Assembly: GCF_037042905.1 (NCBI RefSeq)
Contig: NC_087245.1
Coordinates: 1,612,001-1,674,000, forward strand
Source of the DNA: Lytechinus pictus
Taxonomy: Eukaryota
Reading direction: 5' to 3'
DNA length: 62,000 nt
The position numbers were made by a program, and so were the translations under genes. Positions 3,301-60,200 of the stretch are shown piece after piece. Positions within the stretch are counted from its first letter, which is position 1; each line of letters starts with the position of its first letter. Under the pieces are notes generated by a model that was not told the origin of the DNA, made no database searches, and saw nothing but the letters and a program-made list of their open reading frames with translations.

Positions 3301-4675
3301 TAGGTTTCAGTTGTGAATAAGGGAGAATTTCATTAAATTTAAATAAAAGGTTCCCCTGTACCAATCTACCGAGCACCCCGTCTATGAAAACATCAGCAAA
3401 TGCTTACAACAACAAGCCAAGAGAAAAAAAAATCCTTTATGCATAATTTCCAGCAGAAACTTTGCTTTTTTTGCAGCTAGAAATGCCTTGAGTCTGCTAT
3501 CAGTATGTCTTTCAAGCAATCTTTTTCTATATCTATAGATGAGTGCAAATGACAAGCAACAGAAAGTGCCTGTATGCTATGCATACAGATTTAATTAAGC
3601 CTTTGCTTGGTGTCCGTCTTGTTTTTTATTGCTCTAACATGAAGCAATTGCTATTATTTATTTATGTGGCTCATTAACCCATGCATACAGCCATTATCAT
3701 GTCTAATGATGACTGTAATCCCTGTTTCAAACTTAATGCCCCCAGTGTCTAAAACATGTAGATTCAGAGAAACAAAAGTGGATAAACCAAGTGTCTCCTG
3801 TTAGATAATTCTGTCACAGTTGTGTATATATAATTAAACAATGGGTTAAATCATGATTTAACACCTTTGCTAAAATTTGCTGTATTGTTAAGTCAATGTT
3901 TTACTTTTCTGTACAGATGTACATGCCACCAGTGCAACAGAATGGGCCACAAGTCATCGGCCAGAATGCTTCTACGGGGCAAGTTGTAATCAACTCTCAT
4001 CAGAAACCTGTGAATTTTATTCCTGGTCCAAGGAATGATCTGTCTAAGCAACCTAATGTAGTTTATGTTGGGACTAGCAAACCAGGGATACAGATGGCAT
4101 ACCCTACTACCAACCTCACCATGCAGGCCAATCCTGGTATCAGCGGTGGAATACAAAATCATGGCACTCCTAACATGCCTTTCAAATTACAGATGGGATC
4201 AAACAAGTTGCCCATGTCTTCATTGGTCCAAGCACTTGGGCAGCCCGTGCAGCAGGGTAGCAAGTTCTTCATACAGGTCACACCCGGACAGCAAGGCGGC
4301 AATGGCAAGACGGTCAAAGTCTCGCAGATGCCACAACAACCTCTTCAAACTGGCAATATGCCCATCATTCTCAATAATGTGATTGGGGGGTTACCTCAGG
4401 GACAAATTGCCCCTGCTGCGATTGTGAGTGAGAATGTTTTACAGAATATTCAGCCTGTTGGTGGGAAAAAAAGTGTTGTAACGGTTCCAAGGTTGGCTCC
4501 TGGTTCAGCACCAAGTCCAAAGCAGATCGTCATCACTGTACCTAATGCCACAAATACTGCTGTAAGCTCCATCAGTGTACCGTCTGTTGCTCCTGTAGTT
4601 GTTGATAGTAAACCAGTTGGAGGAAATATTCCTCCTGGAATTAAAATGCAAGTGACTTCAACCAAGAATTCTTAA
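311..4675 (+). CDS. ZMYND8: ZMYND8/RACK7-like MYND zinc-finger protein, last four coding exons (5' partial): join(311..460,1571..1705,2122..2364,3917..4675)
   Basis: Exon 311-460 encodes CASCRQEANYFCCWNTSYCSYNCQERHWQKHEKKC, with the CCWNTSYC signature of the ZMYND8/ZMYND11 MYND finger. The HWxxHxxxC spacing and a long tail after the MYND favour ZMYND8. All exons have ag/gt boundaries and phase 0 (150, 135, 243 bp); the last ends at TAA 4673-4675. Exon 2 is DPYDPYRKKKKKKKRAREEEQAWLKEYGFGGEESDDDPTWEPDPE, and the last exon is Q/P/G low complexity. Confidence 0.8.
543..1218. mobile_element. piggyBac-like non-autonomous element (MITE) in ZMYND8-like intron
   Basis: TTAA at 539-542 and 1219-1222. 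Termini read CCCTGAATAGAC and (reverse complement) CCCTAATAAGAC. TTAA TSD with CCY..RGG ends is the piggyBac signature. Confidence 0.7.
1330..1485. mobile_element. Short MITE, family A copy 1
   Basis: TIR CTGGGGAGTATTTCAT ... ATGAAATGCTCACCAG. Homologous to 31491-31652 and 49388-49565. Confidence 0.75.
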
Positions 4676-5108
4676 ATGCACCTTGTAGGGACGCAAGCTA
4701 AGTTGTGGAGTTATATTCAATTTCTTACTTATCACATTTCAGACGTCATAAAATGGCAGCTATTATGTTCATAATGATAATATGAGAAAGGGGTCATGAC
4801 TTGAAACTCATTGAAATGACTGAGGGAAAAAAAAGACTTCACAAACAGCATTAATCCGAATGAGTGTGCATAAAATGGGAAAGTTTATTATTGCAAAATC
4901 AAACATCCTTTTCACATATAAAGAATGAAAGGGGTCATTTCCTACATTCATTATTATATTGATGCTGAAAATGAAATTCTCAATTTGTCAATGTTTCAGC
5001 TTAATGATGTAGTGTGAACATATGTTTTTGTCACATTTAATTTTTATATTTTACATTAGCCAACAATATGGGTTTTTTGTCATATACTTTATAACATCTT
5101 TATAACAT

Positions 5109-5385
5109 CTTGGCCTCGTCTTACAAAGAGTTGCGATTGATCCGATCAACCTCAAATATGGATGGCTAGCAACATCAACGTCTAAAACACAGATTTGTTC
5201 AAAATAATTTCTAGATATGATGTATATTCATACATTCATTGTTCTCTTGAAGATTCAGTGTAATTCACTTTGTTACTAACAAGATTGTGCAAATTTCCTG
5301 TAGAAAAAATTATGGTAAGGATGGATTTCCATACAGTTGAGATTGATTGGATCAGTCATAACTCTTTGTGTAAGATGGGGCCCAG
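5109..5385. mobile_element. MITE (~280 bp) downstream of the ZMYND8-like stop
   Basis: Imperfect ~50-bp TIRs: CTTGGCCTCGTCTTACAAAGAGTTGCGATTGATCCGATCAA ... TTGATTGGATCAGTCATAACTCTTTGTGTAAGATGGGGCCCAG. Confidence 0.7.
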
Positions 5386-5863
5386 ATATCCATTAGGGCA
5401 CTATCTTGTTTATGTTTGTAGGAATGTCATTGTTATTAAATTGTGTATGAAATTCAATTAGGCACATAATTCAGCTTTTGAGAGTTTTTCAAAATCTAGA
5501 AAATTTTTATTTTTTTCCTTCAAATTTCTGTTTGACCATGCCGGATTACCCCCATATAGCACCGAAGCAATGATAACTTTGCATCTCAGCATTTTTTAAG
5601 CATTCTTTGGCGGAGCATGATGACAATCATCCACAACCAAAATTTGGTTGGAATTTGTCTGATTGGACCCAAGATGTGGCCATATACCTAGCTGCTTTGA
5701 AATCTGTGTAACAAGGCCTGGTTCCAAACGGTTATGAACCAGGCCGATTTCCACTGATTTCAATTTCATTTGGACATATCTTGGACTACCATGTTTGGAG
5801 GTTTTCCACCATTGCTCGAACAAAGTATTGGCATGAAAATGCTGAATTGCACCTAAAGAAAAT

Positions 5864-6155: not shown

Positions 6156-6341
6156 ACAATTATATAAAACATTAACAGTGGCATAATTGACTATTTGTCC
6201 ACAAGGTTATGAACACTAAAGTTTAGATAAAACTATATGAATAGTTTTCATCATTCAGAGAAAATAGTGATGTAGATGATTTTTGTCTCACCTGCATAGC
6301 AGAGTGAGACTATAGGCTCCGCTTTTCCGACGGCGGCGGCG

Positions 6342-7570
6342 CACAATGGGCCGGGGCGAAACAAAAGTGCGCCAAAAGTCATTTTGGGCAATTTCAGATT
6401 TTTAATTTTTGTCATGCCCAGCTGAAAGATAACACTTTGAAGAATACTTCAGCAAAATATTTCATTCTGGAATTTGCATAAAGGTTGTTAATTTCATACC
6501 TCAAATCGTAAAATGTGACATATTGCGAAATGTCGCGTATATGACAACCTAGTTGAAAAACAGGTTATTTCACAGGAGGTTTTTCTTGTAGGAATCTGAA
6601 ATGGCTCCCACATAATCCTGATATATTCTTTTTTCGTGTGAAAGGGTTCAAAGTAGATAAAAGACATCTTTCAGGAGGTTTATAGGATGATTATTTCTCG
6701 AAATAGGCTGAAAATCCTTGTTTTTTGCATTTACATAAGAAACGTTTGGATTTCCGTGTATTTCCGTCTAAATTCTATAAGCATCATTTTTTCCGATGTC
6801 TAAGCTTTAAGTCGATACTAAATTTAGCTGCCCGTTTTTGCCCGTTTTCATGTTAGAGCCGATTTTACTTGACACAACACCCCCAAAACCTGCTAAAAAA
6901 CGGTAATTTTTATACCGCGCAGTCATCGTAGCGCACCGTATGGGTGTACATTGCCGTTCGCTTTTGCAGGCGAGGAAGATTCCCCTTCCATTCCATGAAA
7001 ATGACAAAAAATCCGGGCATAATATAAATAAAATAAAGGTTGCTAACGCAAATGAGGGCTATACCCACAACTCTTCCAGAGATAAAACTTACTTGTAGAA
7101 TAATTTCAGCCAAAAACCCTCCTCATAGTAATACATTCGTGGTGTTATATACTCTGCGTTTTACACAAGTCAACATAGCTTGATAAAGCACGGTTAATAT
7201 TTTTCAGATTTTAAAGTTGTTTTTAATATAAATCTAATTAATGATAATTTTGATGCCATAAAATTATTTTTGACATCTCATACACACTTTTTAGGCATGC
7301 GAGAAGCATAAACCAACATTCACTCTGGTCAATCTTAAACTAGTACATAACACAAAGTTTATATACTACACATTGTTTAGCGTAATCTGTCTTTTCACAG
7401 ACAGGTTTTAAGTAGCCAATCAAAATTTGGTATCAAGGTGACGTCATATCGGCTTTAAATTATGTTCAGTCGATTCTACGCCCAAAATTACCCATAATCA
7501 ACATGTTAAAGTAAAAATCTAACACGGAATATAATTTTGACGCACTTTCAACTCATTCTGGCCCACTGTG
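6342..7570. mobile_element. Transib-like non-autonomous DNA transposon nested in the HINE
   Basis: Ends CACAATGGGCC and (reverse complement) CACAGTGGGCC, with a second shared block AAAGTGCG(C/T)CAAAA. The 5-bp GC-rich TSD is CGGCG (6337-6341) / CTGCG (7571-7575). CAC termini plus a 5-bp TSD match Transib. No transposase ORF. Confidence 0.75.
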
Positions 7571-7979
7571 CTGCGGGGCGTCAACACCAAATCTTAACCA
7601 AAGGTTAAGTTTTTTAAATGACTGCATAACTTAGAAAGTATATGGACCTAGTTCATGAAACTTGGCCATAAGGTTAATCAAGTATTACTGAACATCCTGC
7701 CTGAGTTTCATGTCACATGACCAAGGTCAAAGGTCATTTAGGGTCAATGAACTTTGGCCAAATTGGGGGTATCTGTTGAATTACCATCATAACTTTGAAA
7801 GTTTATGGATCTGATTCATGAAACTTAGACATAATAGTAATCAAGTATCACTGAACATCCTTTGCAAATTTCAGGTCACATGACCAAGGTCAATGGTCAT
7901 TTAGGGTCAATAAACTTTGGCCAAATTGGGGGTATTTGTTGAATTACCATCATAACTTTGAAAGTATATTGGTATAGTT

Positions 7980-8054
7980 ATATATCTGTAAAGCGCTTAG
8001 ACACGTCGTTCCGATGTATTAAGCGCTATATAAAAAACGGATTATTATTATTAT
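7980..8054 (+). mobile_element. Very short 3' end of an L2-type LINE/SINE inserted in a HINE repeat unit
   Basis: TGTAAAGCGCTTAGA...TAAGCGCTATATAAA followed by an (ATT)n tail. TSD TATAGTT at 7973-7979 and 8055-8061. Confidence 0.65.
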
Positions 8055-10585
8055 TATAGTTCATAAAACTTGGACATAAGAGTAATCAAGTATCACTGAA
8101 CATCCTGTGTGCATTTCAGGTCACATGACAAAGGTCAATGAACTTTGGCCGTAATGGGGGTATCTGTTGAATTACCATCATAACTTTGAAAGTTTATGGA
8201 TCTGACTCATGAAACTTGGACATAAGAGTAATCAAGTATCACTAAACATCCTGTGCGAGTTTCAGGTCACATGACCAAGGTCAAAGGTCAATGGATATTG
8301 GCCATGTTGGGGGTATTTGTTGAATTACCATCATAACTATGTAAGTATATTGGTCTAGTTCATAAAACTTGGACATAAGAGTTGTCAAGTATCACTGAAC
8401 ATCTCATGCGAGTTTCAGGTCACATGACCAAAGTCATAGGTCATTTAAGGTCATTGAACTTTGGCCATTTTAGAGGTAATTATTAGATTGCTGTCATAAC
8501 TTTCAAAGTTTATAGATATAGTGTATAAAATGTGGATATAGGGGTAATCAAGTATCACTGACAAGTTTTAGGTCACATGATCAAGGTCCAATGTCAATGA
8601 ATGTAATATTGTATCATTATATGAATGGTGTTTTTCAAAGTCAGCACTGCTGCTATATTGAATCGCGTGATGCAGGTGAGACCGCCAGAGGCATTCCACT
8701 TGTTTTTCAATGCATGACTATTTTTGTCTTAACAAATCACCGGAATTTATGAATTTCTGTTTGAGAAGGGAAGATTTTTTCTTGTTGCAAACCCTTCAGA
8801 GGATAGGTAATTGAGATTATTTATTTCAATAATAGGAGGAATTCATATAAAGATATAGATATTTTCAGCTAAAACAGTGAAGAGAAAGATAGACTGTTGA
8901 CATTACAGACTTAAAAATATGTTCTCTTTTGATGGTAAAACAAGTTTTCCTATAGAAGAAAAGATGTTGATCACCTTTTTTAATTATGATTTGTAGTAAA
9001 TTACAAAATTGTTATCAATATACATTGAACACTCCATGAGTTACAAAAACTTTCACGAATATCTTGGGAATCAATTTTTGTTTTGTATAAAAAAAAAACA
9101 GGTTTTTGTACATTTTCGTTCGTATTTGGATTATGATAAAATTGCCTGTTCATAAAGTCATCTTCCTTTTCTGCATACTTCAGTTTAAGCTATGAAATGT
9201 TGTAAGGTGAAAATGGTAAGGAAAGAGGGAAAGGGAAAGAGAAACGAAATATTAGTGAACGGAAGGAAGAGGGAATGAATGAATGAATGATAGAAGATCG
9301 AGAGAAGTATTGTGAGAGAGAGAATGAACATTTTGATAGAGAATATAAGGAGGGAGGGGGTAAATTTTCAGATTCAGATTATCATTTATTTGGTATAACA
9401 TAAAATCAAGTTACAATAATTTATATAAACTTGATTTTATCTTGAATAAATGAGGAAAGATTACAATGATACAATTACAGTGAATAAAGAGATAAATGAA
9501 CAGTTGTAGAGGGGATGAATGAATGTGAGAAAAAGAGAGATGAGAAAGTAAAACAATAAAAGTGAAGAGAGTTAGAGAAGATAGAAAGAAATGAGCAGTA
9601 AGAGAAAGGGATGGATGATAGGGGAATGAGAGTGAAATAAGAGTGGGCCTGGAGAGGGGTGAGATAGTGAGAAATAAACAGAGAAAGAAATATTATGTAA
9701 AGAGCCTGCAAGATATATGGAAATGATGATAGAGTGAAAAAATAAAATTGAGATTAAATATATAGAAACAGATATCTAAAAATGATAAGTGTAAAACAGA
9801 GAATTCTTGAACAAATCTTAGGTGAGATCAGTGAGAATGAATTCATGAGTCGAGCAAGATTCTGATCAAAACACTTGAAAGATGGAGATCCAAGGGAAAG
9901 AGAATAAGAATGAGCAATAACATAAGGCAGAGAAAATATAAATTAGTCTCATTGATAATTGATGTAAATTCCACTCTCATCTCTGACAATGCATTGGCAC
10001 TGTACTCTTCCAATAACGCGTGTTACGTAACAGACAAGCCTGTTTCTGAAAATTGAGCCCATTTACGTCCCACTGGGATAGCGGCAAACTGACGGTGATA
10101 CATCGCTTGATCGAACGCCACGCGCCGACTGAATCTGTCGCCTTTGTCTTCGGCGAAGATGAGTACAGTGGATTAAAGTTGATGCTTAGCTGAAATCTGG
10201 ATGAAAAAAAAAACATAAGAGGTTGTTTTACTACATATGAGAACTGATGTTTTGGAGCCGTTCAAGTGGCGATTTAATCTTCCCTCTATCAGTCTCTTTT
10301 GCGATTTCAAATTTTCTATTTTTTTATTCACTTCACTCTTCATCTCTTTCAATCTTACAGGTCACTGTCGGTCTTGATCTGTCCATGTATCTTACTCTTA
10401 AATCGATATTATATAACCTTTCACCGTAGTTAGAACTGTAGGTCCATGCTTAGACCCCCTTTCCCTTGTTTACTATTGATGAGGAGATAACATTTGGAGC
10501 ATTTGAGATCATGGGCATCACTTTTCCCCCCAACATTTACTATTTCGTTTCCAAAAAATGTGTGTACCAGTTCATTCGATTTTAA

Positions 10586-22263: not shown

Positions 22264-25200
22264 ATGCCCCGTGCATTTCTTGTCAAACACAAGCGAGCTC
22301 GAGTGGATAGCATAGCGGATGAGCTGTTAGCTCGTCATGAAATGGTCCATGGTGGTAAGAAGTTTACCTACTATCATAATGATAAAATTATTATTCGTTT
22401 TTATTATGTCTTGTATAATTATAACGCATGTGGTGTGTTCCATTTCTTTCCCTTTTAACGATGTATAAATCTTCTACGTTTCTTTTCTCTTCTCTTAGCT
22501 ATCTTCGTATATACTTCCTACCTCTTTTTTCTCATCTCTTTCCTCTTTGTGTGTGTATAATCATCTTCTTTCAATTGCATAATTTTAGTTCATGCTCATG
22601 CCGCTTTTGATTTATATAAATAGTTTCCCTTTATCAACAACATCATAATTACCATGACAGTCACCATTATTTAAACTATTCTCCCTTTCAACAATTATTT
22701 AAATATGTTAATAATCAATACTGAAAAAATTAGTAAATAAGATTATGAAACAATGAAGAAGCGAAATAAGTAAGGAAGACCAGTAAACTCATACATGTAC
22801 CTAAATGTTTCATATGTGGTTTATCATTTTTATTTTCATTTATATATTTATTTATTACATTGCTTCATTCTTTAATAATCTTATTTACTCATTATTTTTC
22901 GTTGTTGATCATAATCATATTTAAAATAATTGTAAAAGGGAGAATATTTTGCATATTATGTAAAAAAAAACTTTTTCTGAGGGCGGACACTTTTAAGCGA
23001 TTTTACATGTTCCTTTTATGCGTTGCGATTGTAATATTTTCCCCACTAACATGGCTTAAAGAATTAAGTATCAGTATCAATATAATGCCTTCCTATTTTT
23101 TTGTTTGCCTTAGTATCGGTAATGTTCTCTTATATTATCTTAATTACGGTGTTGTTCATCTACACATATCTATTAAACATTTTTACATAATCAAAGATGC
23201 TTGGGACCATTATCAGTCTGGTGCGTCTATTAGAAAAAAAAGTTCATTTCTACTAACTGACTAAGCGCAAAAATAAATTCTCACATCAGAATTCTTGTAC
23301 TTTTCTTTGACTCGGTTGTAAACAAATAAAAATATTATGAACTGCCATGACGTTTAATACTGTAAATTTAATTATGAAAGTGATGAAAATATGGGATATT
23401 TTCCCCATCCTTAGCACCAAAACAATCATAGCATACTTGCAAACGTCCATTGTGACAGTTTAAAATAAGACATTTACATCGAAAAAAATAATATAAAAAC
23501 GAAATATTTTTACCTTGTGAACGACTGAACCCAACTGGATATATTCGTATTGTTATTATTATTATTGTTATCATTATAATAAATATTATTATTATTATTA
23601 TCATACTATAATTTTGTATTCTCATTATATTCCTAACATTACATTCGATAATCTTTTTGAATTTAAGAATAGCCTGCTCTATATTGTCGTTTGTTTAAAT
23701 ATTTATTTTGTTCTTACAGATGAAGAGGGGATGCACATGAGGGGTCCTGATCAAGGATTCTCTTCGTCACACTTCGGCCAAAACATATATCCGGAAGGTC
23801 TGTCAAAGCGTGAGCTTAACGCCATAGAGATGGATATGGAAGCACGAGGATTGAAAAATATTCACCCTGCTTACACACTAGCTCCTGGTTTATATCCTCC
23901 AACACCACCACTCCTTCGCATGTCCACTGGTTCAGCCTTTGAGAAAGTTCACCCTGGAGTACCCATGACGGAGAATCTTGGAATGGGATATGGTCCTCTA
24001 CCTGGTAGTATAGACCCACAACGTTTGGTTCTTAACCCTTGGTTGGCTAGTTACCACGAGATCACGGGTCATAACATTCTTCGTGATCGTCTCTTGAGCC
24101 ATCCTGGTTACCTCATTGCAGATCCTAAATGCGGACTTTATCAAGTGCCACCTCGCGGTTATGCGTCAAAGCCTCTCGATGAACCTCTGAATCTTAAGAT
24201 TCGTGAGCAGTCACATGAAGAACAAGTAGATGAGCATGAAGAATTCTGTAGAATTTCCAAGAAATCTCATCCAGAAGATATGTTATCCTTAAAGAAACAC
24301 TCTCTGGGAGGGCCAGTCAGACTTCCTGGAGCAGGATCTGCAGATGATGAATACCCGCGATATCATCAGATGTCTTCAACAACTGCCATTCATCCATCAT
24401 CCTACCCGTTTATTGGTATTCCATATGGTCATCTCCTGGCCCATAAGTATTCTGGTGGCTTCGGCCTAAAGCCACTCGATCGCAATCAATATCCGAGCCG
24501 TAGAGGACGACCAGGGGTGGAAATGTCCCCGCCAACAGCATCCCATGCGCCACCACAGCCTGACATTGAAAATCCACCAATATGCAATGTGAAGCCAACA
24601 TTTAACGAACAGGAAGAAAGCAGCGATTCTGCTTCACCTTTAACGAATGCATATGAGAGTCCAACTATCCTAAATCAACCACGTTTCCCTGTTTCTCAAA
24701 CAAGCATTGAAGATGACGATAGTGGTGATCAGTCACCTTCTTCACCAACCGGTGGGAAGCGACTCACCAGGCAACCCATTTTGGGAGTAGAGTATATCCA
24801 AAACGGCATCGATAACGAACTCCACCATGACGCAGACAGCATCCAGGACTCAGAACAACAATTTCTCCTGCAAGACTCCGAAGAACAGTATCTTCTGCAG
24901 GATGGACTAAATCCCATCTCAGAGGGCGATAAAAAGACTGACAGCGAGTCCAACATGGATGACAGAGCCATCCTTCCCCTGATTCCAAAATACACAGGAG
25001 AGACTAAAGGTCGAAGGGCAAACAGTGCAAAGACACCTCAACCCCGGAAGTACATATGTGACGTTTGTGGCAAGGGGTTCAGCAGAAGCAACACATTAGT
25101 CACTCACAAGGTGAGACAAATAATGTTTACTAACTTTACTCTTACAGAAACAAATAATAAATGTTTCTCTCTCTCTCTCTTTCTATTTCTCTCTCATTCA

Positions 25201-28200
25201 ACCATTATTGATAATCGATATTCCGTAAAATCAAATTAAATCCTAATAGGCCTACGTACGGATTTCGAAGTGTTTCATACGATATTAAAAATGTTATCTT
25301 CGTATGTATGATTTGGCTATGGTTTATTGTGGTTTCATTGCATTTATATCCTTGCAGTGAACTCTTTTTTTTCTCAAAACTTTGTGTAACCTTCTTTCAA
25401 TATACACCTTATATTATGAATATCACGCATTTACTCGAAGTAACAAGATTGAGATAAGCTTTATTACATCAAGCTGAGAAGGACATTGCACTCCACTTCA
25501 AGATTTCGATATCTTTGTAAGATTTAGCTCATTCTGTGATCTCTCTTTATTTGATTTCTTCATGTTTTGATCTTCACAGCGGCAGCTGTGCACAACAATA
25601 TAATCCGCATTCAATAGTATGATCCATGAACAAAATTATCTTAAGTCTCTACACTCAGTCCGACACTTATTACCACTTTCCCAGTATCATCTCATTTCAC
25701 TTGTCTTACACAAAGAGATGAAGACAAAAAACCTTCTTAAAATCATCTCCTTTTCGCTGGAGAGAGCTGTTTGCTCAATGCCAGGTGGGGTTGTGTTTGA
25801 ATCCATCTCTCTTTTTTGTTCAGTCTTGCCTTTACGAAGTGACAAAAGCTCGACAGCTTGGGATTATTACGTAAGAATGAAACGCCGTGTTTTCTGTTCA
25901 GGGAATCAATAGGGGTTGTGCTTATCCTCCAGACCAGTGTGTCCACGCGCCAAATATCGATTTGAATGGATGATGATGTAGAGAATAAAAGAGGAGCACG
26001 CGAACCAATAAAATGATGCTCAGAATCCCTCTGGATATAATGTACAAAGGATTGTCTGTCGAAGATTTCACGAATGTTCACACTGCCACTCTTTTCTTCG
26101 CAGCAATTACACCTTTTCAATATCAAGGAAGTATCGCATAAAAAAAAAAAAAAAGTTATTCGTTTTTATTACACCTAGTAAAGAAGACAAAAGAAACATG
26201 CAGGTTTTGATTTATATGACGTTATGGAACATAATATAGGTAAACATAACATATTTAAGGATTCATTCATTTGCGTGTATATACATGTACATGACTGTGC
26301 ATGACATAGTTAAAATGTAATAATAATCAAATTGGCGATTTTAAGAACCAGTTATTTCTTATCATCGAATATTGAAGTTATTTGTAAAAGTGAATTTATC
26401 ACTTCCTCTATAAAATAACAAATTAATGCAAGCTTATTTGCATTTTAAGTGAAATATATGTACATTGAATAAATGATTCAGCTACCTAAGGTTTTCTTTT
26501 CAATATCGATGCAATATTAGACCAATTATACCAGACATACATGGAAGAACAACCGCCGTAATTACCCTTGCAATTCTCGTCAGTCTCCTCCGTCTTGATA
26601 AGCGCCGAGGTTCCGGTATAAAATGAACCGGTGACTACGGGTTGTATCGATTTCTTTCTTTATGAGCGAAAGGGCAGTTAGGTCCATGGTTAAAAGAAAG
26701 CGCTGTCGTGTTATCATCCTCACTTTGTTATACCGTCGATCATTGTCTTTTTTTTACTTCCGTATTAACCAAAATTAATGGAATGTAAAAGAATGCACGA
26801 TGTTTTTATGATATTCCAGCTAGGCTGTAAGAAGGGTTTAATTAGAAGGCCCAGGGGGGCCACTTACATTGACGAGTGGATACCATGCGCGACCAAAAAA
26901 ACACGTAAAAAGGATGTCTTTTTCACGATAGGGCACGTTACGTACGTAACGTGATAAGGGTGTCAAAAACACAAAAATAATGAAAAAAGGGTATCTATTT
27001 CGCTAGGAAAATTGCGTGTTTAGGGTCGAATTCGCGGGGATGATAAAACAAAATTAAAATGTTTTATAAAGGATGTCCTTTTTGCCCCAACACTTCGTGT
27101 TTAGAGTCCGATTTGCGCGAGGTGTAGAAGGTGGGGTCGTACTAAACCAAATAAGGTAAAGCCGACGACCGAAGGACCCGTAACAATAAAACATTTTTGT
27201 TTAGGGGTTCATTCAGGGAACATTTGCCAAGAGTAACGTTTTGTTACCAATATTTGTTAAGGGTATGGTTTCACACGCCAATACTTGTTAAGGGGCGCAT
27301 TTTCAGAATATATGGAAATTACGTGTTTAGGGTGCTTTTCGAGACCCCATGGTCGCGCATGGTATCCACTCGTGAATGGAAGTGGCCCCCACCCCCCCCC
27401 CCGGGTTAGAAGGATACATAATTATTTTTGGCGAAGTAACGTTACGTATCAATCATGTATGTAAGCAATGGAGTACAGCCCTGGACAGGCACTGACAGGG
27501 GCAAAAATGGCCCTAAAGGAAGGGGATGTAACTTCAATTGTGCTTCACATTCATCATTTATTGGGTCATTCACTTTTAATATCAACTACACTGAATGAGA
27601 TTTCTTAAAGAAGAAGTATTCTCATAGCATCTTATTAGCACAATGATTATGTTCACAACATTAGCTTATATATTTTCAACTCTTCATATTGATTCTCTGT
27701 TCGTTCAGCTGTTTAACTTTCTATCATTACACTGATGACCAAGATGCTTATCATTCTCCATCTGATAAAGCACAAAGGGGTTTCAGATACTCAATTTCTT
27801 TTGATAAATCTCCACTCGTTCCCTTATCTTGTTTGATATAATTCACATTTGAAACCTCCAATTATCGATCGTTCTTACTTTGAATAATTTAAATGGATTT
27901 CCCCCCCCCCCCCCCCATTCTTACAGCGCATCCATACAGGAGATAAACCCTTCGCTTGTGAACTATGCGGAAGAGCGTTCCGACAACCCGGGAACCTTAC
28001 CCGACATCGCCTGACCCATACTACGGTCAAACCTTACGTGTGCACGCAGTGTGGAAAGGTAAAAAAAAAATGCAAATTCAAATCATTTCACTTATATGCC
28101 TCATTAATTTTCATATTACATTTACAATTATGAAACAGTTAGTATAACCTTCCTACTTTTAACATGCTTTATGAAACGGGGCCAAAGAGTGGAAATTAAA

Positions 28201-33911: not shown

Positions 33912-36900
33912 CAGGGACCTGGGAACTCGCGGGGGTGCTGGGGGTGCTGAAGCACCCCCAAATTTTTCCTGGGGGTGCTGCGTGTATTATTTTCCATAGG
34001 CAGCACCCCCACGAAATCAGGTTCCCTTTGTATTTTTTATATATGTTATAATGTACATAATTATCACATCCGACAATCGCAAATCATATACAACGTCTTT
34101 CACATATTCCAATAACATCCCTCCTATAACATGTAACGCGACTCAATCAAGCTCCGGCACGCCGATACAGACGTAGTCGCGCGCGATACGTGATCTTTTT
34201 TTTTTCTTTCAATCTTTATTGATCAAAAAATAAATCACAGTACAAATCAAACAAATCAACAAGCTATTTACATGATTAAACAGAGCAGCACTTACGTACA
34301 TGTAGGTATGTACTTGTCAAGACAGATTCATAAAACAAATTAGATATCAAATCTCCACTTTTTAAAATGTACAGGTAATTTACCATTTTTCTTCGCCAAA
34401 ACATATTCAATATCCTTAATACCTTTGATACGAGCTTTTAATTCCACAATATTGGGGTTTTTGTTATTAAATTTACAAAAGTGAACATAGTATTTGAAAG
34501 CAAGGAAAATGAATGTTAGAAAATTATCACCTTGAATACCAAAAACCTTTACAAAGGGGGAAAGGACAATATTCGAATGTTGTTTTTGGTTTATTATAGA
34601 TAAAAGATCATCCCATACAATGTTAACCACCGGACAATCACAAAATATATGTACAATTGTTTCAGGGTCTCTTTTACAGAATGAACAGTTTGGGGAATCT
34701 TTTCTCTTGATTTTAAATAAAAATGCATTAAGGGCAATTGTCTTATGAAACACCTTGAAATAAAATGATCTGAGGCGGCTATCAATAGTACTCTTAAAAT
34801 TCAGCATATGTATTTTCTCCCAGTCTACTTTGTCGTTAGAAGGGCACGACTCTTCCCAAAAGGAAATACAATTATCTGGGAGACATTGATCGAAAAATAT
34901 CGAGTATGCATAACTGCTAACTTTCCTTTTCTCTAATAATTTATCTACAACTTCGGAATTGATATCTAACCATGGACCAGGAATATTTTGTAATAGAAAA
35001 TTAAATTTTCTTCTATCTTTTGCTGAAATTTCAAAGTCGAGAACTAACTCTTCAAATAACTTGTAACCTGGATGGGGTGGATTAAAGAGATCACTTATAA
35101 AAACTATGCCCTTATTAAACCAATTTCCATAAAAGAAAAATTGTTTAGATTTGGATCTGACATTTCTATTAAACCAAATACAATGTGAATAACCCAAATA
35201 CAAATAATCATAACCAAACTCTTTTCTGGAAGCTTTATCTCTAAACAAGTACCAGGTCCGGATTGAGTCTGCAAGTAGGGAACAATTTAAATTATTCAAA
35301 ATTTGTTCAGGTGCATGGGCCTTCCACAAAATGTCCCTCATTGCATTAAATTTGTCTAAAAAGGAAACTTCAATTAATTTCCATCCACTATTGTAGTTAT
35401 CATTTAACAAAAATTTTACCCAAATCATTTTCTGAGCCAATGAAAATGTATAGGGATCAACCATCTTGAGCCCACAGGCAGAAAAGTCATTACAAAAATA
35501 TTTCCTCTTTACTCTGTCCCTGCCTCCATTCCAAATAAATCTGTAAAATAAAGTATTTAGATCTTTAAAAAATTTGCTTGGAATTTTAATACACAAAACA
35601 GATAGTAAATACAGCAACTGAGGCATTAATAAAGTTTTAATAACACAGATTTTTCCAACAAAAGACAAATTTCTTGAGCGCCAACAATTCAATTAATATA
35701 TTCTCTATCTGCCTCAGTTTAGGAACATAGTTAAGACTATACAGTGAATTAAAATTCAACGAGAATTGAATACCCAATGTTTTGAAAGAATTATCTCTCC
35801 ATGTTAGACCTCTTTCAGCAAATGGGAAATCTTGACAACCTTTTTTCCTTCCTATCCAGATAGCTTCTGACTTAGATAAGTTAAGCCTACACCCTGAACT
35901 ACTAGCAAATTTATCAAGCACTTGAATTGTTATATTAAAAGATTCCAAGGAACCATCCAAAAAACAAGTTGAATCATCCGCCATCAATGAAATTTTCACT
36001 TCTTCATTTTGGATTGGAATACCTTTGATAATGTCATTTTGTCTCACAGCTAAAGCCATTGTTTCAATTACAAGTAAAAAAAGATAGGGGGAAATTGGGC
36101 ACCCTTGGAATATGCCTCTTTCCATATTAATTACCTTAGTTAAAAATCCATTATTCATAACATAACTTTTCCTCTCGCAATAAATGTTTTTTACCCACTT
36201 AATAAATTTTGGATAACCATTATAGTTTACACACTACCATGACTACTCGATAGCAGAGAGGGACAAGGGTGTGGTTGGACTTGAAACTTAGAGGGTTTTA
36301 TGTCGAATCAAGTGTGGGCGAGCCCGACCGCCCGTGTTTTGTATAAAGAATTACAATTCAGACAATAAAAATCAAATTTCAGTCTTTTTCGCCCTGCCCC
36401 ATGGCCCTGGGAAGCGGGGGTGTTGGGGGTGAAGCACCCCAAAATGTGGGGGTGCTGCATGTGTTATTTTCCATAGGCAACACCTCCTGGAAATCTAGTG
36501 GTAAGTTGATGAATGACAGAAATGTAATGAAAATGAACGACGTTTTGTAGACCCCACCCCCTTAAGAATTTTCCGACACAGTACTTAAAATAGTGTTTAA
36601 ATTCACCCTTTTTCAAATCGGAATATCAAATATTTTCTGCTCGTGCTTCGCGCTCGCATTATTGATTTTTATAATAAAAACAAAGTATTTACAACGCCCA
36701 GATACTAAAGGGCTAACTCTAAACACGCGCACGCATGTTTATTCAGATACGCAGCTTGTTTTGGGGCTACTCCGGGCTGAAAATATTTATATCAAATACA
36801 ATTTTATGAAAATCTGATAACAAATAGTTATGTTATTTAATTCTAAAGTTTAGCAATAGTTTATGAAAATGGTGATATGCATGTCGTCATGAATATTAAA

Positions 36901-54230: not shown

Positions 54231-57200
54231 TCAAATATCCCAGATGAACCAGCCTACTTGGCTCGGTGATAGGACTGCCGCAAAGCAACTTGTCGACACA
54301 GCAATGCCCCAAGGTTTAAAACCTACAGCCGTATTATCATTTGGAAGATAGGTCTCCGCAAGGAGTTCACCATGGTCTCCATAAACCTCCAGGAAAGCTC
54401 TGCGAGTACCCTGGATGTTATGATGAGATATAACCCATAGATTGCCTTCTTGGTCACAGGACACTCTACCAGTCGTTGAGAGAGCTATTACTCGACATGA
54501 ATTATCCGATGAAGCAATTACGACCCCATCGTCCTGTATAATGACAATCTTCCCATTCTCTGTTGAATTGATCCTCAGTTCCCCGTTTGATTTAATGCCA
54601 ACTACGGAGACTGCATCAATACGTGACCCATCACCTGAAGAAAGTCTAACGATTTTCGCGAGTTCTGAGTACAGCATCAAGACATTGTCCTCGGGATCTG
54701 TAGTGATAGCATCCACCACTCCATCATCCTCATGTATTGAGAACTTAATGTTTTGCTGTATGCCTCCACTCTCATAGATCTTAACCTTATTTCTTTTCGT
54801 CAGAGTGACGAAACGACCATCAGTCAGTGATGCCATATCTTTGGCTGAGATGTTAGCTGACCTTATTCTTTTGCTACTGCCATCTGACCAAAGGACTTCC
54901 GTGTGACCATTTTGATAATGAACCAATATGCTGTCATTCGTATACGGTGTCATTATTTTTATTCTACCGGATACCTGGGCACGGAGAGTGAGAAGAAGTC
55001 TGTGCTTGCGAACTTGGAGAACGCATTTCTCTTCACCTGCAAAATTGTGTGAGAAGAACAAAAAATATCAGAAAATGAAGTCAAATGCAGAAAGTACAAT
55101 TTCATGGATTTAACATTCATATAATGTGAAAAATGTATTTATATTTATTTCTTATTATTTATTTTGTCTTATTTATTTTATACTGCAGGGTAGGCCTGTT
55201 CAGTTCTTAAAACTGCTTTACAAAGGCGCCCTGCAGTTTAGAATACATGTCAAGATAACTATGAACAACAACAACAAACAACATCAAAAATACAAAATAC
55301 AAAATATCTAACATCAGAAACAATTAACACCAAAATATAGAGTGGGAAGTGACAATTTGAACATACATAGCATTGTAAATCAATGGAATATCATTTCGCT
55401 CTTTATCAATTCGTATGAAAGGCTTTGCATAATTTTTTAAAAACTAACAAGGAGGTACAAACTTGTAAATTTGAAGGAAGTGCATTAAATAATTTGGGTC
55501 CGACATATGCGAAATATTTTCTTTTATGTTCAATTCTAGCTTTGGGAAGCTGAAGGGGGCATCGTAAAGAAAACCGTGTCCTGTATTTCACGGGCCGTTT
55601 ACATACTAAAGGTTTTAAATAATTTGGAACTAAATCATTCATTATTTTATATACAAGAACACAATACTGATATTTTATACGCTGATCTACTGATTGCCAC
55701 TTCAGTGACTGCAACAAAGAAATTTGTGATGTATTATAATTTTTTTTCAAAAGCATTCTGGCATATTTATTTTGAAGTTTTTGTATCTTATCTAAATGTA
55801 TTTTTGCACTGCTTCCCCAAGATGTAATACAGTAATCAATGTTAAGGTAAAATCATAGAAAAGTACAGCTTCTTCATGATATCAAAGGACAGTAAGTGCT
55901 TAATCCGCCTTACACAACCTATTGCCGAGATATTTTACAAATGATATTAGTAATATGTTCGCACCAAGTCAAGCCCGGATCGAGCATGACACCTAAGTAT
56001 TTAATCTTTTTTACATTTTCTAATTGTATGTTCCTGAATTTCACTGACAAATGAGCACCCCTCAACTTTTTCTTTTGACCAAATACCATGGCTTTTGTTT
56101 TTTGCGGGTGTAAATGCATATTCTTTAAGTCTAGCCATTTACTTATTGAATCAAAATCATCTTGCAAATACTTTTGTACCTCCTTAATTGATTCACCGTG
56201 ATTAAAAATGGCGGTATCATCAGCATAAAGAGACATTTTAGAATGTACATGCAATTTCAAATTACACATGTCATTAATAAAAATACAAAATATCAATGGA
56301 CCCAGTATAGATCCTTGTGGACTCCTGATTTTATCTTCAAAAATTCACTGCGACAACTGTTAATCATTACAAATTGCCTTCTGTCTGTTAAATACGATTC
56401 CATCCAGTTGTATTCATTGCCAGTAATACCATAGTACTTAAGTTTTGCAAGTATAAAATTGTGAGGAATAACATCAAAAGCTTTGCGTAAGTCCAAGAAA
56501 ATACCACCAGTAACATGTTTTCGGTCCATTTTATCATACAAAAAGTCTGTAATCTCAGTTAGACAAGTGGCAGTAGAATAAGACGGTCTGAAGCCAGACT
56601 GACAATTTGCAAGTAGATCATTCACATTTAAGTACTTATACAATTGATCATGTATTGCTCTCTCTAGTATTTTGGACAGGACTGGAAGCACAGAAATTGG
56701 TCTATAATTGTCAATATCAAATGATCCTCCCTTATGTACAGGAGTAATTCTTGCTGTTTTGAAATCTTCTGGAATAACACTAGTTTGTAAAGTTGCATTA
56801 AATAAATGGGTTAAAGGGCCAGCTATACTCTCTGCTGCCAGCTTAAGAAACTTAGGGTGAATGCCATCTACTCCGACCGCTTTCGAACAATCAATATGTA
56901 ATAGTTCTTTCAAAACATACTCCTTTTTGATTGCATAAAATTTAAATTCACAATCTGGAATAAACAGAGTTTGTAAATTGTTTAATAAATCTTTCGAGAA
57001 ATTACCCGAAGCGGCTTGCAACCTTGAGCCGACTTCATTAAAGGCTTTGTTTAGAACGTGAGCTATTTCATTGTTAGGTATTTGATCATTATCTATTGTT
57101 AATTTAACATCATGACTCGTGGTTTTATTTTTCTTAGGTATAAGCTTCGATAAAATGTTCCAGTTCTTTTTTATGTCATTTTCGCAGTCCTTAAATTTGT

Positions 57201-60200
57201 CCTGATAATACTCCTTTTTCAAATTTTTAATCAAGTTATTAGCTCTGTTACGGGAAAACTGAAATTTATTCCACCAATAAATTAATCTTGTTTTTCTAAA
57301 TTGCTTTCGATAATAATCCCTTTCGCGTGCTAACACCAAAAAATCATCATTTATCCAAGGTACCCCTCTTTGTTTTTGCCGCACTGATATCACGGGGGCA
57401 TGCCTGTCACAAATGTCCAGGAGTGTGTTTTTAAAGTAGTGCCGCAATTTGTCAACGTCAGTCCCACAGGAATAAAACTCATGCCAATCAACTTTCCTTA
57501 CATCATCTTTAAATTTCTCACTGTCAAAGTACTTGAATGAACGACATTTAGTTATTTTCGGAGAAAGGGATTGATGTTTCCCTTTAATTGCAGTAAAAAT
57601 CACAGAGTGATCACTAAGTCCAGCTGACTGCACTCCTGACTTAATAATATTGTCAACAAGTGCATCAGAAATACATACCAAATCGATTACTGACTGGCTA
57701 TGTGGTGAAATTCTAGTGGGTTCAGATATAACCTGTGTCATTTGCATTGTAGTAAGGAGACTGGAAACTTTTCTAGAAAGATTATTTATGGTTTGCATAT
57801 TACAGTTAAATTATAATTAAATTAAATTATACATGCACAACAGCTTTGGCAACTATTTTTTTATTTAAATATTTTGTGAAAGAAACACAGCAAAAACTGT
57901 GGTGTTAACTGGTCACTGGCGTAAATGGAGGCCTGTACAAACACCCCCCCCCCCACTTTTTACGAAAGAAATGAAAACAAAATCACAAGAGATAATTGTT
58001 TTATTGGTGAAAATTCTTCCAAAAATACCGCTTTACAAATAAAATAATATTATTGAATCATAAAATGCAAATAAAGAGCCAGTTCACCATTTCCAAACGA
58101 AATACTTATGTCCTTATTATAACATTGAAGAGAAACCCCCGTTTCTTCCAATTCATCAATGTTGGGGTCTTTGGGAAGGGATTAAGATGGAATGTCAAAA
58201 ATTTGTTGAATGTAATCTCTAATAAAACCATTAAACCATCATGGGGTAAAAAAGATAATAATATTGGAGGGGTATTTGCCATATGGACATACAGTGGCGT
58301 AACTACGGGGGACATGGGGGGCACATCCCCCCCCCCCCCCCATCAGCTGACCAAAAAAAAAACGGGAAAAGGGGGAAAAGTAGAAAAGAGGGAGAAAGGA
58401 AGAGAAACGTAGTGGGAAAGAAGAAAATATTATTCATTAGAATGTTATATTATATTATAACTATGTTAAGTTACATTACATAAGAAACATTTTTATCATA
58501 ACTTTATGAAACATAATTTGCCCAGGGCCTATGTCTTCATTGTTCCTGGTGCTCGCATTGTCTGTTTAACGAGATATATAATCCTGTTGTACTAAAACAT
58601 CCCGTTTTCAAGTCAATATAAACCAAATATATTTCCTAGCACTTGAGTTATCATTGTTTTATGTAGTGACATATGCTTCTTTTTCATGACTCAAAAGTGA
58701 TTGCCCCATGTTAAGGTCTTCGTATATATGAAACATTTCCTGTCCGTGATTACGTTCGCATTAGTGGATTGGTGAGATATGTCTGCTCTTCATGAATTCC
58801 TAAAATCAGTCCTTAACATGTCCCTTCTTCTGATCTGAATATCAAAAATTTTCAGCTCGCGCTTCGCGCTCGCATCATTTGGTTAATGAAATACGTATGG
58901 TCCTAGTTAATTCCTACAAAGAAACCTTAGGATGCCCCACTTCAGGTCTGAATTATCTAAGTTTTCAGCTCGCGCTTCGCGCTCGCATTGTTAAGCGAGA
59001 CAGGTACCTATCATGATTACACAAATTTGATTATAATGTCCCTTTTTAGGTGTGAATATAAAAAAAATTCAGCTCGCGCTTCGCGCTCGCATTATTTGAT
59101 CAGTGAGATACATATCCGTTTAATGACATTGTCCTTAAAATGTCTATATTAGGTCACTCACTCAGTCATTCAAAAATTTTGCTGGTGCCCCCCCCCCCCC
59201 AATGCCGTGACCCACGGTCGCCACTGTGGACATATCAATGACAATTCCTTATCTAAAAACATGATTGCAAAAAAATGCCATAATATTTCAGTCATCCCCC
59301 CACCCATCAACACGGATTTACGCCAGTGTAACCGGTGTACATAGAGGACCACACCAGTTATTTTACACCGGTGTTGAATTGGTGGTGTTAAATTTTACAC
59401 CTATAGGTGTCATTACAACACCTTTGGTTGTTACATTTACACGCTTTGGTGTTATTTTTAATCTCTAGAGTGTAATTTTAACACCTCGGGGTGTGATCCT
59501 CTATTAACACCAACTGGTGTCAGTTTTAACACCGCAGTTTTTACAGTGAATGAATGAAGAGAACATTGGAAGGCGGAACTTAAATCAATTAAGGTTCCCC
59601 CGAGCTACGTACCATTTGGAAACCTTGGTGAGGCCGAACAAATGTCTGCCGGGATTCGAACGAGGGCCCTTTGCTTAGTACATCGGTGCCTTAAACCACT
59701 TGTCACAGATAGAGACGGATTAGTAGTGGATACGATTGACCATCAGATAAACAGATTTTCACCCCCACCAATACATACACACACACACACACACACGCAC
59801 AAATATGTGAAAGAAATGAATGAAGAAAACAATAATATATATATGTATATATTATATATGTATATATATATATATATACAATTGAGGCCAAAAATTTCCA
59901 CACATACCCATGGAATCAGTGAAATTTCTTCGTTTGCCAGACATAGTAAAATTTACTATAACTTCAGAAATATTAATACTACCATGACGAAATTGGTATC
60001 AAATGAAAGAGCGTATTAAGCTCTTTCACATGATTGGAATGCCGTTGGGATCAAAGTATATTTCAGGTTGAATTTTCTTTGAAGAAAACAAGTAATATTC
60101 ATGCCAAATGTATTCTATTGTTAGTTATTATGTTTTCAAACAACGTTTCATAGAAATATATAATAAATGTCAAATTTATGATTTATATTACATTTTCTAT

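Follow-up and report, generated by a model that had tools for sequence, protein, structure and literature searches.

The closest described systems are the Transib transposons, in which an end consists of a heptamer, 23 bp and an A-rich nonamer within terminal inverted repeats of ~38 bp (PMC1131882). As far as the available part of that report goes, the sea urchin Strongylocentrotus purpuratus carries TransibN1_SP (Kapitonov and Jurka 2005), with symmetric 36-bp ends and CGNCG targets (PMC1131882, Fig. S4g), and the autonomous Transib1_SP, 4,132 bp long, with a 676-aa transposase and a CGGCG target duplication (PMC1131882); 12/23-type Transibs are described there from insects, namely Transib5, Transib2_AG and TransibN1-3_AG (PMC1131882). 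The HzTransib ends, in the excerpted account, bear little likeness to the nonamer, and the enzyme responds to nonamer position and prefers the 12RSS (PMC4840297). On the RAG side, the accessible sections describe AAA at nonamer positions 4-6 as the motif that RAG mainly reads (PMC12711392), RAGL enzymes as thought to read an A-rich stretch adjoining the heptamer (PMC7204232), and echinoid RAGL genes as having no TIRs found around them (PMC9885083). RSS-like Transib ends, GC-rich 5-bp targets, the sea-urchin end blocks discussed below and true 12/23 Transibs have all been in print since 2005. Among the literature titles on Transib in Lytechinus or on a RAG1 transposon in Lytechinus pictus, none concerns the present family, which may be catalogued in Repbase or Dfam.

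The window, a 62,000-nt stretch of L. pictus DNA, contains at positions 6342-7570 a 1,229-bp element (Table 1), in which every motif named by an earlier note on this DNA can be read from the sequence, with the positions, spacings and flanks that it had claimed. Our reading, held with high confidence, is that this 1.23-kb element, which does not encode protein, belongs to an abundant Transib family of sea urchins, that it probably arose from a Transib1_SP-like element by internal deletion, and that a single-protein Transib transposase probably mobilised it in trans, with a putatively symmetric reading of its ends. Indeed, it has what is expected of a Transib: a 5-bp GC-rich duplication, terminal repeats of ~38 bp, ends in common with a Transib-DDE element, and no transposase of its own. 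The element holds no ORF of 150 aa, the longest ATG ORF being 57 aa, and tblastn of two Transib proteins against the window copy gave no match; it is thus non-autonomous, as had been claimed. Its arms form a 37-nt inverted repeat, 73% complementary, and at the left end CCAAAAGTC is identical to the 12-spaced tract ACAAAAGTG at 7/9 positions. Peculiar to this copy are its left heptamer CACAATG, a right nonamer that begins with T where the family has C, and a target duplication that matches at 4 of 5 positions.

Table 1. Features of the element and of its insertion site (positions in the window)
Feature	Position	Strand	Remark
Left part of a very abundant host repeat ending in a CGG tract; insertion site	6280..6341	+	from contig junctions
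Left target-site duplication copy, CGGCG	6337..6341	+	from sequence
Left terminal inverted repeat: heptamer CACAATG, GGCC, variable segment, AAAGTGCGCCAAAA block, GTC	6342..6380	+	family heptamer CACAGTG
Left heptamer CACAATG	6342-6348	+	then 12 bp to ACAAAAGTG
ACAAAAGTG, A-tract 12 bp from left heptamer	6361..6369	+	overlaps the block common to both ends
Fourth A of the 12-spaced tract	6363	+	state of the young subfamily; C or T in L205, L206, C11 parent and TransibN1_SP
CCAAAAGTC, A-tract 23 bp from left heptamer	6372..6380	+	CG separates ACAAAAGTG from CCAAAAGTC
5' part, homologous to left end of the transposase-bearing C11 fossil	6342..7038	+	element positions 1-697
Stretch homologous to DNA ~300 bp upstream of the C11 fossil coding region	7090..7204	+	73-76%, element positions ~749-863
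3' part, homologous to DNA downstream of the C11 fossil coding region, to its right end	7304..7570	+	element positions 963-1229
Right terminal inverted repeat: CACAGTG, 23 bp, TCAAAATTA	7532..7570	-	family form CCAAAATTA; TTGAAAGTG at the 12 position
Right 23-spaced nonamer TCAAAATTA	7540-7532	-	from sequence
Right heptamer CACAGTG	7570-7564	-	from sequence
Right target-site duplication copy, CTGCG, one mismatch	7571..7575	+	4/5 match seen in 9/82 copies
Host repeat continuation, 146-163-bp units	7571..8602	+	direct-repeat families D1-D5; depth over 10^6

The element is one of roughly 300 copies of a non-coding family, here family A, in the 812-Mb genome. A genome-wide search with end patterns allowing <=2 mismatches returned 270 left and 339 right ends and none in the reversed controls; among the 44 matches listed to the whole element, 35 cover essentially its full length, with 92-100% identity, 40 of the 543 candidates having been scored. 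Ends were tallied in 82 distinct near-full-length copies in the fetched loci, some segmental duplicates included, and since these copies were chosen by likeness to the window copy or by exact end patterns, the conservation of their ends is inflated. A perfect 5-bp target duplication flanks 67 of the 82, and a duplication with one mismatch, the state of the window copy (4/5), flanks 9/82; at 4, 6, 7 or 9 bp there is none (0/82), so that the 5-bp duplication claimed for this copy is borne out for the family. CGNCG is the target in 53 of the 67 perfect duplications. The copies differ from the family majority by 2.2-8.4%. The family heptamer is CACAGTG on both ends, found in 74/82 copies on the left, where CACAATG occurs in 1/82. 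Both ends carry CACAGTGGGCC and AAAGTGCGCCAAAA at the same positions, and these two shared blocks, searched as one pattern, mark 719 ends in the genome (control 0), a number that includes a second family, B. A search with an older copy, L206, gave no close sisters, the best full-length match being 76%.

Several other arrangements of family copies were seen. Long or unpaired copies, considered as possible autonomous copies (40 stretches, then 20), proved to be nested insertions, truncations or pieces inside another repeat; family B came to light in these stretches. At nine loci (L100, L101, L102, L109, L111, L114, L126, L127 and L131), a right-end fragment of the family is embedded in a different dispersed short repeat, and its flank is the same at every locus. 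At L051/L052, L022 and L108, family copies stand in tandem or beside a family-B copy, a few bases apart (a gap of 8 bp at each of L051 and L108), an arrangement suggestive of more than one insertion into a single CGG tract. A composite at L117:1312-3127 (G000:C3:70521312-70523127) has a right end on both sides, with arms 93% identical, CGGCG on both flanks and an inner left end that lacks its first two bases; this lone case hints, though weakly, at pairing of like ends; by a hand estimate from the duplication tally, target preference alone would make flanks match ~1 time in 6.

The transposase-bearing parent lineage of the family can be located in the same genome. A short Transib motif, searched as DNA, was found at 7 places (control 0), and four of the seven are duplicates of one insertion on C11. 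At C11:197023-208991, a left and a right end, with CGCCG/CGCTG as flanks, enclose a frameshifted Transib transposase ORF, whose frame is 46-76% identical in pieces to a full-length Transib protein, P0021 (697 aa). The window element matches the left end of this fossil at 70-73% over positions 1-697 in three of the four duplicates and at 76% over 1-547 in the fourth; it matches the right end at 74% over 963-1229 in two duplicates and at 79% over 1062-1229 in the other two. This homology covers none of the coding region of the fossil. Matches to its 5' part, its upstream DNA and its 3' part without the coding region are the pattern of an internal-deletion derivative. At the same time, the fossil is much farther from the young copies than these are from one another; thus, it is a relative of the parent and not the source of the enzyme for the last burst. 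The earlier note had foreseen a Transib or RAG-like partner. Judged by these homologies, the partner is a plain Transib: the lineage homologous to both arms encodes, in its broken C11 copy, a Transib transposase, and the RAG-like half of the proposal falls away, as the ends of the RAG1L-RAG2L transposon of this genome differ. What is new here is the location of this lineage, which rules in a Transib and rules out a RAG-like element as parent, and the direction of the base change at the 12 position; the window element as it stands matters little, and these additions are local.

The sister family B is ~2.0 kb long (e.g. L162:7961-9956, and many other places), with the same end blocks and targets as family A, and it keeps the last 55 codons of a Transib transposase at 78-93% identity. 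Contigs C2, C7, C8, C15 and C17 carry broken transposase copies of the B lineage; these copies are ~91% identical to family B, as B copies are among themselves, and by age the B-lineage transposase is the best candidate for having driven the last burst. A related open stretch of 450 aa on C15, which belongs to the B lineage, gives E 1e-82 against HzTransib (6pqn) and E 4.5e-5 against RAG1L (6b40), and the D, D and E motifs of the transposase lineage align with those of HzTransib and are present in relatives as well. This Transib core (G000:C15:7470347-7471696, minus strand, L257) has the three catalytic motifs and lacks the N-terminal third; within the 30 kb fetched around it there is no terminal repeat. 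Two protein searches returned no intact full-length transposase among the candidates scored (94 of 172 and 64 of 126). Two metagenome contigs from another source (L246 and L247) carry family-B-like left ends, 78-79% identical to B over ~130 bp. A search with DUF1280 led to elements whose ends differ from those of family A and which we read as Chapaev-like, the family name being our own reading: a 9.1-kb intron-containing element in four copies ~99% identical (L147-L152 and L159; C7, C15 and C6 twice), with a RING, a GRP motif and DUF1280, ends CACGT...ACGTG, and 4-bp duplications on C7 and C15.

We propose the following for the movement of family A. By analogy with HzTransib biochemistry, a transposase dimer supplied in trans would bind both ends; as in HzTransib and RAG work, it would cut at the CAC heptamers by nick and hairpin and join the ends into a GC-rich CGNCG target cut with a stagger of 5 bp. 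Cut-and-paste mobility is suggested by HzTransib and by the dispersal of the copies, whose duplications differ. The ends would be read symmetrically, via heptamer-GGCC and the AAAGTGCGCCAAAA block at the same distance on both; conservation in families A and B and in TransibN1_SP suggests that these shared blocks are putative binding sites and that the middle segment is free to vary. The resemblance to a 12-RSS may have a simple origin: within the block, every end has a pair of A-tracts that lie 11 bp apart, and in the young subfamily a single C-to-A substitution in front of the first left tract would be enough to spell ACAAAA. The 12-spaced nonamer is then explained as a one-base variant.

The earlier note had read the left end as a 12-RSS and the right end as a 23-RSS, with the caveat that the repeat may be symmetric and the 12-bp site fortuitous. 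The caveat is the better reading. In each of 5 Transib end pairs, the left and the right end align best when unshifted (shuffle p below 0.0005 to 0.0095): over positions 14-36, 15-16/23 bases agree at offset 0 versus 8/23 at +11, and the window copy gives 15/23 at offset 0 (shuffle p 0.0015). The mark of a 12/23-type element, a conserved subterminal motif shifted by ~11 bp between the ends, is absent. Scored against the RSS nonamer, the left end matches at 6/9 at 12 and 6/9 at 23, and the right end at 3/9 at 12 and 5/9 at 23; the nonamer-like tracts are not divided between the ends, one at 12 and the other at 23, as the left end has both, and AAA occupies nonamer positions 4-6 in either register at each end. 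The 23-spaced CCAAAA is kept on the left in 80/82 copies. Structurally, the element is thus not of the 12/23 type, and the 12/23 RSS likeness of its ends is likely incidental. ACAAAA at the left 12 position is not peculiar to the window copy: the family carries it in 81/82 copies, so the earlier note's worry that a consensus might lack it is answered. The 12-position tract is instead ACTAAA in the C11 parent and ACCAAA in the older copies L205 and L206 and in TransibN1_SP. In an unrooted tree, the C11 parent and L205/L206 group apart from 12 young copies with support 0.98, and the fourth A looks derived, the outgroups for this polarity being few, namely a single C11 insertion, present as four duplicates, the two old copies, each without close sisters, and one published consensus; a C19 remnant with a gap in its left end was left out as an outgroup state. 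The RSS nonamer score of L206 is 6/9, equal to that of the young form.

Could the family nevertheless be heading to 12/23 asymmetry, each end having two A-tracts one helical turn apart, of which the transposase reads the near one at the left and the far one at the right? We consider this improbable, although several observations speak for it. ACAAAA is nearly fixed, and left ends have four As in both amplified families (GCAAAA in 26/26 family-B left ends) and in the two metagenome ends; family-A right ends have TTG before the near tract (TTGAAA, three As, in 102/107), family-B right ends have CCCAAA or TCCAAA in 24/25, and the right end of the C11 parent has lost its near tract (CTCGGA). The two left tracts are 7/9 identical to each other in families A and B, the two right tracts 4-5/9. 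True 12/23 Transib families exist in insects, going by what is available of PMC1131882, the excerpt of PMC4840297 gives HzTransib a preference for the 12RSS, and a GRP motif is present in 6/8 close transposase relatives. Four As on the left and mostly three on the right could be a real left-end preference. Yet families A and B alike retain, at either end, the far tract and the complete AAAGTGCGCCAAAA block, the 11-bp shift of TransibN1_AG is not seen, the parent and the old copies lack the fourth A, and one transposase-bearing B-lineage copy (L256) has a fourth A on its right end. A slight left-end preference for the near tract, as an incipient asymmetry, is accordingly a long shot, and so, in equal measure, is the idea that the clade represents a present-day stage on the way to the 12/23 rule, with the near tract strengthened on the left and the right end relying on the far tract. 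If this were true, a one-gene Transib would already read 12-like and 23-like sites without RAG2, asymmetry would have arisen via unequal use of a doubled site and not by an 11-bp insertion, and the ends of the clade would be a natural set for testing how spacer asymmetry arose.

It is still less likely, and in our view very unlikely, that the element is a substrate of this genome's RAG1L-RAG2L transposase instead of a Transib enzyme. Such a transposon does exist: a complete element of 13.57 kb is present in two copies, 99.99% identical and with different flanks (G000:C182:10626-24199, plus strand, and G000:C233:26181-12609, minus strand; L078-L085). Its frames are open, its heptamer has CAC, and its duplication is of 5 bp. 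It has an open 612-aa RAG1L core exon (6b40_A, E 4.5e-150) and, found by reading the element, a convergent kelch-PHD exon that matches RAG2L (6b40_M, E 2.8e-15); the duplication on C182 is CGGAG/CGGAG, and the C233 flanks do not match. But its ends are CACA(A/G)TGGCAAAT and not CACAGTGGGCC plus AAAGTGCGCCAAAA, and family A does not share their heptamer and A-rich TR2, lacking an A-rich stretch beside the heptamer such as the consulted part of PMC7204232 describes. A RAG1 family search of the genome gave 17 matches, those with a readable frame being of RAG1L type, and element DNA has no similarity to the DNA around any of the 17; both arms of the element are homologous to the Transib fossil. 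The ends of the RAG1L-RAG2L transposon match each other at 10/13 at an 11-bp shift, which is not significant in the 23-base offset test (p 0.38). This transposon is a different family, more notable than the window element. Least probable of all, and close to negligible, is that the window copy now serves the host at this locus, as a signal for recombination or as a regulatory site. CAC is kept in both heptamers, and sea urchins express RAG1L and RAG2L, as stated in the accessible part of PMC8355894; against this, the copy lies 3.3% from the majority, within the range of the 82 copies, carries changes of its own at each end and is itself inserted in another repeat.

The insertion site lies in that repeat. 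In contigs of all four runs (4/4), 6334-6341 is joined directly to 7577-7579 with the element absent, and there are loose ends at 6279-6280; because both flanks are repetitive, these junctions are uninformative on polymorphism of this site. The host-repeat motif lies within 60 bp of 20 of the 82 family copies. Elsewhere in the window, a host exon at 23521-25239 (+) has a 572-aa frame ending in a C2H2 finger below the Pfam cut-off, and host exons at 3857-4675 (+) and 54231-55067 (-) have two frames with no Pfam match. Frame pieces at 34340-36233 (-) and 56293-57810 (-) are, by motif reading, presumably of LINE-type reverse transcriptase. Short inverted-repeat structures at 5107-5387 and 5697-5763, with 33-nt arms 79-85% complementary, are probably small transposon remnants.

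Compared with known systems, family A stands nearest to TransibN1_SP, which is likewise short and non-autonomous and whose positions 1-11 (CACAGTGGGCC) and 23-36 (AAAGTGCGCCAAAA), in the published figure, are identical to both ends of family A. At the 12 position, either end of TransibN1_SP reads ACCAAAGTG, which differs from ACAAAAGTG by a single base; TransibN1_SP is perfectly symmetric and mostly ~0.9 kb as far as its description goes, whereas the window element is 1.23 kb and its 11-bp middle segment differs between the ends. We regard family A as a probable relative of TransibN1_SP, compared by ends alone, and do not place it as a member. Transib1_SP resembles the P0021 lineage in having a single Transib transposase of similar length, and the window element, its putative kin, differs from it in having no coding region. 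The insect 12/23-type Transibs, as far as they are documented in the text available, share with family A the CAC heptamer, A-rich tracts and 5-bp duplications, but one of their ends is the other shifted by ~11 bp (in TransibN1_AG, 16/21 matches at shift 11 and 10/21 unshifted, counted by eye), whereas the ends of family A align without a shift. HzTransib (Helicoverpa zea, PDB 6pqn) has 5-bp GC-rich targets like family A, and the sea-urchin clade transposase has DQK where HzTransib has DGK. The RAGL/ProtoRAG transposons, including PflRAGL-A with its asymmetric ends, also have a CAC heptamer and 5-bp duplications (PMC7204232, PMC10462144, in the portions at hand), but differ in coding for both RAG1L and RAG2L and in the A-rich TR2 that adjoins their heptamer; in that place family A, of one-gene Transib origin, has GGCC. 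Finally, the vertebrate 12/23 RSS resembles family A in CACAGTG on both ends and in the nonamer likeness of the left end at 12 (6/9) and the right end at 23 (5/9); unlike the vertebrate RSS, the left end of family A also scores 6/9 at 23, its spacers contain a conserved block, and it has no flanking coding segments.
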